From: SAR324 cluster bacterium
Lineage (GTDB): Bacteria > SAR324 > NAC60-12
Direction of reading: 5' to 3'
Assembly (NCBI GenBank): GCA_015232315.1
Contig: JADFZZ010000032.1
Location: forward strand, 796 to 32,795
Length of the DNA: 32,000 nucleotides
Each line of letters begins with the position of its first letter. Position 1 is the first letter of the stretch. Below the pieces are notes generated by a model. It saw nothing but the letters and a program-made list of their open reading frames with translations, did not search any database and was not told where the DNA came from. Below are positions 5,494 through 7,058 of this stretch, in pieces. The position numbers were made by a program, and so were the translations under genes.

Positions 5494-5831
5494 GGATACA
5501 CATCAGTCAGAATGCAAAAAATTATGATTTTGCATACCGAATTCAGTCTAAAGATACAACCATTAATTTCAGGGTAAGACCCCCCGTTCAAGGATCACAG
5601 GAGGGGTAATTTTCATTTGCTCCTGAATCTGTCAACGTGGTCGGGATCCTGTGATTTACTATTTTTGCCCTTCAGAACAGGCCCCGGCCTCCATGGGCCT
5701 GTGGCGATCTCAGGATTCTTGGATATTGCTGTTTGATGTCAGCTAAAAAAAAGTTTCTTTTTTTAGCTGGTCCTGTTAAGCGAATAAATATTTGCAGAAT
5801 TATTCCGGAAGAATTCACACAGGAGTCGTGC

Positions 5832-7058
5832 ATGAGGGAAAAACTGACATCATATGATATCAATAAACTGGTGACTTATAATGTGGACAAGTTGGTGTGT
5901 GTCCGATTGATTGTCGCCATGATTCAGGCTGATGGCGTTTTAATGCCTGATGAACTGTCCTACCTGCAGAAACTGGTGTATGAATTGGAACTCTCGACAG
6001 AAGATGAATACACCATTCAATATGATTTGACGCATCCCACCCCTTTTCAGGAGTTACTCAAACAGATTCCTGTGCCGGACTCGGAAGATGTCTGTAAATT
6101 ATTGCTGGATCAAGTATGGCAGGTCGCCTGGTCCGACGGCGTTCTGGATCCAAAGGAAGAAGCGGTTTACCATCAACTGGAGCGACATTTTAAGCTCACT
6201 ATCCCACGGACCACTTCTGCTACCAACGTTGTGGAATCCGGCATGTCGAAGGAAATTCTGAAACTGCTTGAAAAAGCTGAGGAATTGCTCAACGACCAGC
6301 AGATGGAATCCGATAAGCGGAAAATCAAATTGCGGCGAACCGTCCATGATCTTGCCCTGAGCATCAAGGGCGCTGTAGCAACAGTTTTCATGCTTGCAAA
6401 TCCATCGATCGCCTATAAAATTGTGATTGAGCAAGTGCATGTCTTTGCGGATAGTTTGAAAAATGAAAAACTATCCGCCTATGGTGACGCTAATGTCTGG
6501 GCTCATGAGGAATTGCTGAAAGCCTGTCTGGAACTTGAAAAAATGATTTTCGCCAGTTCAGCCAAACGAACTCAACCAGAAAAAAATCTCAAACCGGAGA
6601 TCCAGAAATCGTCGTCAACTCCTGAAAATACCCAGCCAACACTGGACGATTTTGAACTCATCCCCTGGTATCATGTTCTGCAATCGTCTGTTGCGGATCT
6701 CAGCCCGACAGGCGAAATGTTTGCGTTCACCCGGCAATGGCTCAGGCAGTTTTATTCTGGAAAAACGGCAGAACTTGCCATGGTGCAGGTTTCTACCGAT
6801 GCCATGATACCTACGATGTCTCCCGGAGACGGAGTTGTGGTCTATCTACAGGCAAATTATCGGGGAGAAGGGATCTATCTGATTCGTTCCAATGCGAGCA
6901 TCAAAATTCGGCGAATGCAGAAACTGGTCGATGGGACGTTCCGGATTTTCAGTGACAACAACCGTTATTCTGAAGAAAAAACCTCCGGTGAATTCAATGG
7001 TGGCGTTGTGATTCTGGGACAGATTTTATGGGTAGGAAAACTCCTTGCCAGCGTCTGA
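5832..7058 (+). CDS. TerB-like N-terminal domain fused to an S24 (LexA/CI-type) peptidase-fold C-terminal domain lacking the Ser/Lys dyad
   Basis: The N-terminus has two TerB-type repeats (LIVAMIQADGVLMPDELSYLQKL; VWQVAWSDGVLDPKEEAVYHQLERHF). The C-terminus VQVSTDAMIPTMSPGDGVVVYL...GIYLIRSNASIKIRRMQKL...RIFSDNNRY...VVILGQILWVGKLL follows the S24 pattern V.GDSM.PT...GD.V.V...GIYV......VKRL.....SDN..Y....I.G.V.W. Start set at ATG 5832, which has AGGAG 6 nt upstream. Confidence 0.7.
   Translation: MREKLTSYDINKLVTYNVDKLVCVRLIVAMIQADGVLMPDELSYLQKLVYELELSTEDEYTIQYDLTHPTPFQELLKQIPVPDSEDVCKLLLDQVWQVAWSDGVLDPKEEAVYHQLERHFKLTIPRTTSATNVVESGMSKEILKLLEKAEELLNDQQMESDKRKIKLRRTVHDLALSIKGAVATVFMLANPSIAYKIVIEQVHVFADSLKNEKLSAYGDANVWAHEELLKACLELEKMIFASSAKRTQPEKNLKPEIQKSSSTPENTQPTLDDFELIPWYHVLQSSVADLSPTGEMFAFTRQWLRQFYSGKTAELAMVQVSTDAMIPTMSPGDGVVVYLQANYRGEGIYLIRSNASIKIRRMQKLVDGTFRIFSDNNRYSEEKTSGEFNGGVVILGQILWVGKLLASV

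Follow-up and report, generated by a model that had tools for sequence, protein, structure and literature searches.

A SAR324 TerB-domain protein with a CI-type S24 domain lacking the catalytic residues

The S24 domain is almost always read as the mark of a self-cleaving repressor. The window analysed here, a stretch of 32,000 nucleotides from a SAR324 genome, contains a gene whose product (P0001, 408 aa) automated annotation would call a peptidase or a LexA-family regulator, and neither name fits. The locus raises the question of what an S24 domain does on a protein that has no DNA-binding domain and no Ser/Lys dyad. We found that in P0001 a TerB domain at the N-terminus is followed by a helical middle part of ~145 aa and, at the C-terminus, by a Peptidase_S24 domain of CI/XRE type (Table 1). 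The TerB-S24 combination is a very rare new architecture made from known modules, and its pseudo-peptidase state has precedents.

Table 1. Position of the TerB-S24 gene, its domains and motifs, and upstream elements in the window
Feature	Position	Strand	Basis or remark
Whole TerB-helical-S24 gene (408 codons and stop)	5832..7058	+	Open reading frame and translation; N-terminus MREKLT common to P0002 and P0003
Perfect 12-bp inverted repeat CAGCTAAAAAAA-N6-TTTTTTTAGCTG	5740..5769	.	63 nt upstream of the start codon; identical in L002
Shine-Dalgarno AGGAG	5821..5825	+	6 nt ahead of ATG 5832; identical in L002
TerB domain, residues 1-125, two A/S-D-G...E repeats (D34/E41, D102/E109)	5832..6206	+	Pfam; profile A4
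Family-specific helical middle domain, residues 126-270, low-complexity tail at its end	6207..6641	+	AlphaFold model
CI/XRE-type Peptidase_S24 domain, residues 271-408, predicted catalytically dead	6642..7055	+	Pfam, PHROG, model, Foldseek
Cleavage-site hairpin remnant, residues 275-300, ASAG(G/Y)G loop deleted	6654..6731	+	Gap in alignments A2 and A3; modelled strands
TDAM (T322-D323-A324-M325) in place of the GDSM nucleophile motif	6795..6806	+	Alignments and UmuD' profile match
IRRM (I359-R360-R361-M362) in place of the VKRL general-base motif	6906..6917	+	Alignments and UmuD' profile match

Two full-length homologues were available for comparison: P0002, a 96% identical orthologue from an independent, syntenic SAR324 MAG (GCA_015231535.1), and P0003, a metagenomic protein of 409 aa encoded on a 2-kb ENA contig. 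Both begin with the same residues as P0001, and these N-termini, along with the position of the Shine-Dalgarno sequence, favour the ATG over a TTG at 5733, which was rejected as a start. The longer frame from the TTG would enclose the inverted repeat, which may act as operator or attenuator. The intergenic region between minC and the TerB-S24 gene is ~98% identical between the two MAGs, apart from a 142-bp insertion at the second locus (L002:5658-5799, corresponding to ~5636/5637 of the window). With the direct repeat GTCAACGTGGT(C/T)GGG at its flanks, this insertion has the look of a small MITE-like mobile element that duplicated its target site.

P0001 exceeded the curated Pfam cut-offs for both of its recognizable domains. 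TerB (PF05099, cut-off 24.4 bits) was matched with 29.1 bits, as compared to 43.1 bits for P0003, and Peptidase_S24 (PF00717, cut-off 23.3 bits) with 40.3 bits at residues 294-397. A profile of the N-terminal domain (A4), built from P0001 and seven TerB relatives, matched the solved TerB structure PDB 2ou3 with an E value of 7.4e-6. In these eight sequences, QADG (residues 32-35) and SDG (residues 101-103), each followed by a Glu, are invariant, and so are both acidic pairs. No helix-turn-helix (HTH) family was matched by P0001 in Pfam or NCBIfam at E values up to 10, and NCBIfam yielded weak partial matches only, one of them to the TerB-like part of DjlA. An initial reading made from the sequence alone, which had noted two TerB-type ADG repeats in place of an N-terminal HTH, agrees with the Pfam match and with the invariant acidic pairs. 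Since P0001 has no DNA-binding domain, it is not a repressor. The TerB domain has been described as one of unknown exact function that occurs in defence and stress systems and is predicted to bind metal or a small ligand. It is the best conserved part of the comparison with P0003 (61% identity) and has no non-synonymous change relative to P0002.

TerB-domain proteins are unusually numerous in the genome of the window, with 11 loci, several of them in larger multidomain proteins (for example, C66:98217-98564 in a 415-aa ORF and C22:201284-201991 with two TerB repeats). A stand-alone TerB paralogue of 146 aa (C55:156671-157015; L009:1480-1920, minus strand) is 39% identical to residues 12-126 of P0001. 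Its neighbours are a membrane protein with a weak resemblance to YdjM (24.2 bits, short of the cut-off), a 243-aa protein with two repeats and no annotation, and a cNMP-binding protein.

The middle part had been taken for a helical linker of ~150 aa. Its helical nature was retained in the AlphaFold model, with helices at residues 137-153, 160-183, 191-212, and 224-246 predicted at moderate confidence (pLDDT about 75-89), but its description as a linker was not. Residues 160-235 are 51% identical to P0003, and the middle domain as a whole 34.5%. When 1.84 billion cluster representatives were searched exhaustively with HMMER, P0003 alone matched this region among the 150 top-scoring hits listed out of 6,900. 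On these observations, we regard the middle part as a domain of its own, specific to this family, and not simply as a linker. A Foldseek search with the full-length AlphaFold model gave no meaningful fold match for the middle domain; this model, built from three sequences, is poor (pLDDT 56.9) and weak in its S24 part. No transmembrane segment is evident in P0001 by hydropathy, as the highest 19-residue windows contain charged or polar residues. Membrane anchoring was therefore rejected, and the earlier notion of a membrane-associated scaffold is not supported.

The C-terminal ~130 aa had been said to follow the S24 pattern, and both the Pfam score and the structural comparison agree with this. 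PHROG assigned the C-terminus to CI-like repressors (E 5e-16). Modelled by AlphaFold from a deep alignment, residues 257-408 reached a pLDDT of 85.5, and the model was matched by Foldseek, with a probability of 1.00, to the C-terminal domains of phage 186 CI, LexA, UmuD', and lambda CI (E 1.6e-7 to 3.4e-3; TM-score by target length up to 0.8). A profile was needed to see this relationship, since single-sequence phmmer searches against the PDB with the whole protein or the C-terminal piece returned matches at chance level only (TolB, and SipA at E 0.5).

Despite the clear S24 fold, none of the features used for self-cleavage is in place. In an alignment of P0001 with the two XRE-HTH-S24 proteins of its own genome (A2), the homology is plain (ELAMVQVSTDAMIPTMSPGDGVVVYL in the window protein against QLAMVQVSGDSMVPTLSDGDQILVDL in the own-genome protein), with Ala324 opposite the Ser and Arg360 opposite the Lys. 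The same residues occupy the dyad columns of a 123-row alignment gathered with a mixed profile and containing 120 HTH-S24 relatives (A3), where the Ser column holds Ser in 119 rows and the Lys column holds Lys in 121. In A3, Thr322 stands where GDSM has its Gly, two residues ahead of the Ser (Gly in 121/123), and the combination of Thr, Ala, and Arg is confined to the lineage of the window. A 146-row alignment of the best representative hits likewise has Ser and Lys in 139 rows each at the two positions. When the A3 profile was aligned with E. coli UmuD', GDSM was placed on GDSM and VKR on VKK, columns which we take to be the Ser60 and Lys97 dyad of UmuD. The sequence-only reading had proposed that GDSM is replaced by TDAM and VKRL by IRRM; all four comparisons place Ala and Arg, not Ser and Lys, in the dyad columns, and the codons had been located correctly (GCC at 6801-6803 for Ala324, CGG at 6909-6911 for Arg360). 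As P0002 from the independent MAG also has TDAM and IRRM, the replaced dyad is not a sequencing error.

The substrate side of the reaction is affected as well. The hairpin that carries the cleavage site in S24 proteins is modelled as two strands (residues 274-282 and 290-300), and P0001 has a four-residue gap opposite AG(H/Y)G in both A2 and A3. Active S24 peptidases have an Ala-Gly or Cys-Gly scissile bond in this loop. The Ala-Gly scissile loop is deleted in P0001 and P0002, and P0003 also lacks Ala-Gly there. Judging from these alignments, P0001 cannot cut itself by the known S24 mechanism.

The TerB-S24 fusion has a very narrow distribution. Only two full-length clusters, that of the window and P0003, were among the 150 listed hits of the exhaustive search, and the remaining listed hits were stand-alone TerB, HTH-TerB (P0113), or HTH-S24 proteins. 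Among 88 species-level SAR324 genomes, the fusion was found in the genome of the window only; a scan of genome contigs found no TerB-S24 relatives, and the C-terminal piece, used by itself in a word-index search, gave no match. P0003 is 44% identical to P0001 overall, with the lowest value, 32%, in the S24 domain. In a quick and poorly resolved tree of the S24 domain, P0001/P0002 and P0003 fall within one 29-row clade (support 90), not as sisters and both on long branches. The common origin of the fusion is thus argued from the full-length collinear homology between P0001 and P0003 rather than from the tree. The NusB protein encoded beside P0003 is 47-54% identical to those of the SAR324 family of the window and less to those of other families, and by this measure the fusion seems to have arisen within this family. 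P0003 retains Ser and Lys (GDSM and VKR). Whether the Ser-to-Ala change is conserved, a point raised by the sequence-only reading, therefore has a divided answer: Ala is kept in P0002 but not in P0003. From the dyad of P0003, we conclude that the loss of the dyad is recent, later than the fusion, and specific to the lineage of the window.

The gene neighbourhood, which is syntenic in the MAG of P0002, is not conserved between P0001 and P0003. As had been noted before, the window gene is divergent from minCDE, with MinC, MinD, and MinE encoded upstream; on the convergent flank lies a thiolase/SDR/MaoC operon, and flagellin is also encoded nearby. A functional link to minCDE was rejected because the P0003 gene sits between nusB and lpxD instead. 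The Ter operon genes terA, terC, terD, terE, and terZ, or biosynthetic genes linked to them, are absent beside P0001 and P0003. A reading as a defence system was likewise rejected: in a comparison with known anti-phage systems that contain TerB, such as Bunzi and Shango, PADLOC gave no match for P0001 or P0003, and phage genes were not seen among the annotated neighbours of the window gene, which encode flagellin or have housekeeping or metabolic roles.

If the S24 domain of P0001 cleaves nothing, it is reasonable to ask whether the fold itself is still maintained. We considered 27 hallmark columns that are at least 85% conserved among the 120 HTH-S24 relatives. P0001 keeps 18 of them (F299, W303, L315, D323, M325, P327, T328, D333, I348, Y349, R361, G368, S374, D375, N376, Y379, G396, and W400), and at three others the replacement is conservative (L to V, L to I, and V to I). 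The non-conservative changes take in all the catalytic features, namely the deleted Gly of the cleavage loop, E291S in the cleavage hairpin, G322T, S324A, and K360R, together with D338Y, which is common to P0003, and R397Q. This pattern fits a loss of catalysis within a fold that would still be maintained. Comparison of the window gene with the P0002 gene showed that the gene as a whole is under purifying selection (dN/dS 0.25; 16 non-synonymous and 18 synonymous changes; p = 1.3e-4 against neutrality). By part, dN/dS is 0 for TerB, 0.25 for the helical domain, and 0.40 for the S24 domain; with 8 non-synonymous and 6 synonymous changes, the last value is not significantly below 1 (p = 0.089), so that constraint on the S24 part alone is not proven. 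The S24 branch of P0001 in the quick tree is also ~3 times the median length, suggesting that this domain may be only weakly constrained, and conservation arguments drawn from two independent lineages are thin.

On balance, we lean towards P0001 being a cytoplasmic sensor or adaptor of the TerB type, whose non-catalytic S24 domain serves for dimerisation or for binding a partner. The sequence-only reading had likewise seen a non-cleavable S24 fold kept as an interaction module, and the loss of the dyad, the active-site Gly, and the loop, the hallmarks that are kept, and the purifying selection on the whole gene support it. In the simplest scenario, P0001 would be a soluble cytoplasmic protein in which the TerB part, thought to bind metal or a small ligand, senses such a ligand. 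Having neither the active-site Gly, the Ser nucleophile, the Lys base, nor the Ala-Gly substrate loop, the CI-type S24 domain would cleave nothing and could instead act as a dimerisation or peptide-binding module, like the LexA-fold domain of 186 CI. A dimerised S24 domain would then join two units of TerB and the family-specific four-helix domain, or dock them to a partner. If so, the LexA fold would have found a second, non-catalytic use on a TerB scaffold, and P0003 and P0001 would offer a natural pair, active and inactive by their dyad sequences, for studying the role of an S24 domain that does not cleave and the signal to which this TerB subfamily responds. The locus is of limited practical value, as the family is confined to two known SAR324 lineages, both from metagenome assemblies only, and lacks conserved genomic partners.

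Alternatively, the S24 domain may be a decaying relic. An ancestral self-cleaving TerB-S24 switch, like P0003, would have broken, leaving the TerB and helical parts as the only functional ones. The retention of Ser and Lys in the sole other lineage, the joint alteration of three active-site residues, the long S24 branch, and an S24 dN/dS indistinguishable from neutral beside a TerB domain free of non-synonymous change are all as expected from such decay. However, the 138 codons of the domain are still open in two independent assemblies, two thirds of the hallmark columns are kept, with the catalytic ones among the non-conservative changes, AlphaFold models a confident S24 fold, and phage 186 CI shows that a domain without the dyad can function. 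We therefore consider decay rather unlikely.

The genome of the window offers partners for another possibility. This genome (95% complete) encodes RecA, the LexA_DNA_bind domain was not found in it, and it contains only three S24 proteins: P0001 and two XRE-HTH-S24 paralogues (C20:62641-63051, L004:1477-2154, minus strand; and C50:13334-13753, L003:1219-1887, plus strand). Both paralogues have an intact AG site and GDSM and KR motifs, and they may be the non-canonical SOS repressors of this SAR324 lineage. Their near relatives in SAR324 MAGs are annotated as 'LexA family'. P0001 could thus be a regulatory decoy, with its dead S24 domain docking to activated RecA filaments or forming heterodimers with the two repressors, so that DNA damage or repressor activity would be tied to the TerB module and P0001 would not be consumed. 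Non-cleavable LexA S119A still docks to activated RecA filaments. The S24 domain of P0001 is 31-35% identical to those of the two paralogues and matches their core motifs, and complexes of the RecA filament with LexA, UmuD, and lambda CI are among its fold matches (8gms, 8trg, 8gmt, and 8gmu). Against this, the cleavage-site hairpin, which contributes to RecA* engagement in LexA, is shortened in P0001, and the S24 domain is the part that has diverged most from P0003. A decoy role is, in our estimate, quite improbable.

A broader version of this idea is that TerB-S24 proteins form an unrecognised class of LexA-like autoproteolytic switches acting on a TerB effector that does not bind DNA, in which P0003 would be the active form and P0001 a naturally locked variant, a sensor or decoy that would not be consumed when it engages activated RecA or the HTH-S24 repressors. 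If true, DNA damage would be coupled to a TerB-mediated response in a bacterium without canonical LexA, but we regard such a class as very doubtful. Finally, residual peptidase activity, with Thr322 (two residues ahead of the nucleophile position and conserved in P0002) or another Ser as nucleophile and Arg360 or the nearby Lys358 as base, is most improbable, because Arg is a poor general base, the canonical scissile loop is absent, the Gly that occupies the Thr322 position in nearly all relatives makes this change more likely to disrupt the site than to rebuild it, and Lys358 (6903-6905), put forward earlier as an alternative base under the number K391, is Glu in P0002 and so is not conserved.

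Returning to the preferred reading of P0001 as a sensor or adaptor, its parts can be compared with several known systems. On the TerB side, stand-alone TerB proteins (PF05099; 2ou3) of 115-146 aa, including the paralogue from its own genome, align over their full length with residues 1-125, and the TerB module of DjlA gives a weak NCBIfam match. Unlike in these, the TerB domain of P0001 is fused to helical and S24 domains, and P0001 has no ter-operon neighbours, J-domain, or transmembrane helix. Another protein, P0113 (202 aa), is a direct fusion of an XRE-HTH with a TerB domain from this subfamily, and the TerB domain stands where CI-like repressors have S24. This arrangement hints that the subfamily may serve transcription factors for sensing or oligomerisation.

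On the S24 side, the nearest sequence relatives of residues 271-408 are the XRE-HTH/S24 proteins of the 'phage repressor protein C' family (lambda CI-like; PF00717 and PF01381). They share with P0001 the motifs xDxMxPT, GD, IY, R-Q, SDN, and G-W, but have an HTH, the ASAG(G/Y)G loop, GDSM, and VKR, all four of which P0001 lacks. The pair of Ser-to-Ala and Lys-to-Arg changes is also present in the HTH-S24 proteins P0097, P0128, P0133, and P0146, which are scattered in the tree and were gathered with a search profile biased toward such sequences. P0121 and P0123 belong to the same group of HTH-S24 proteins, whose members carry both changes or one of the two. Non-cleavable CI-like repressors with the Ala/Arg pair seem to arise repeatedly.

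Loss of the dyad has also been described in the wider LexA/signal-peptidase superfamily. SipA of S. pyogenes is an inactive S26 homologue in which the Ser-Lys dyad is lost but the peptide cleft is conserved, and which acts in assembly without catalysis (PMC4049620). It is a weak match to P0001 by sequence and by fold (PDB 4n31), and differs from it in belonging to the S26 family, in being membrane-anchored and extracytoplasmic, in having a cap domain, and in the replacement of its dyad by Asp and Gly. Phage 186 CI, in turn, is a repressor with an N-terminal HTH where P0001 has TerB and helical domains, and the two are 13-14% identical in sequence. The C-terminal domain of 186 CI serves oligomerisation rather than self-cleavage. 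Like P0001, 186 CI combines a LexA/S24-like fold with an Arg at the general-base position, and its structures (PDB 2fkd, 2fjr, and 7jvt) are the top Foldseek matches of the P0001 S24 domain; its LexA-like domain has no canonical active site, and the Arg in question is Arg152 (PMC12984324).
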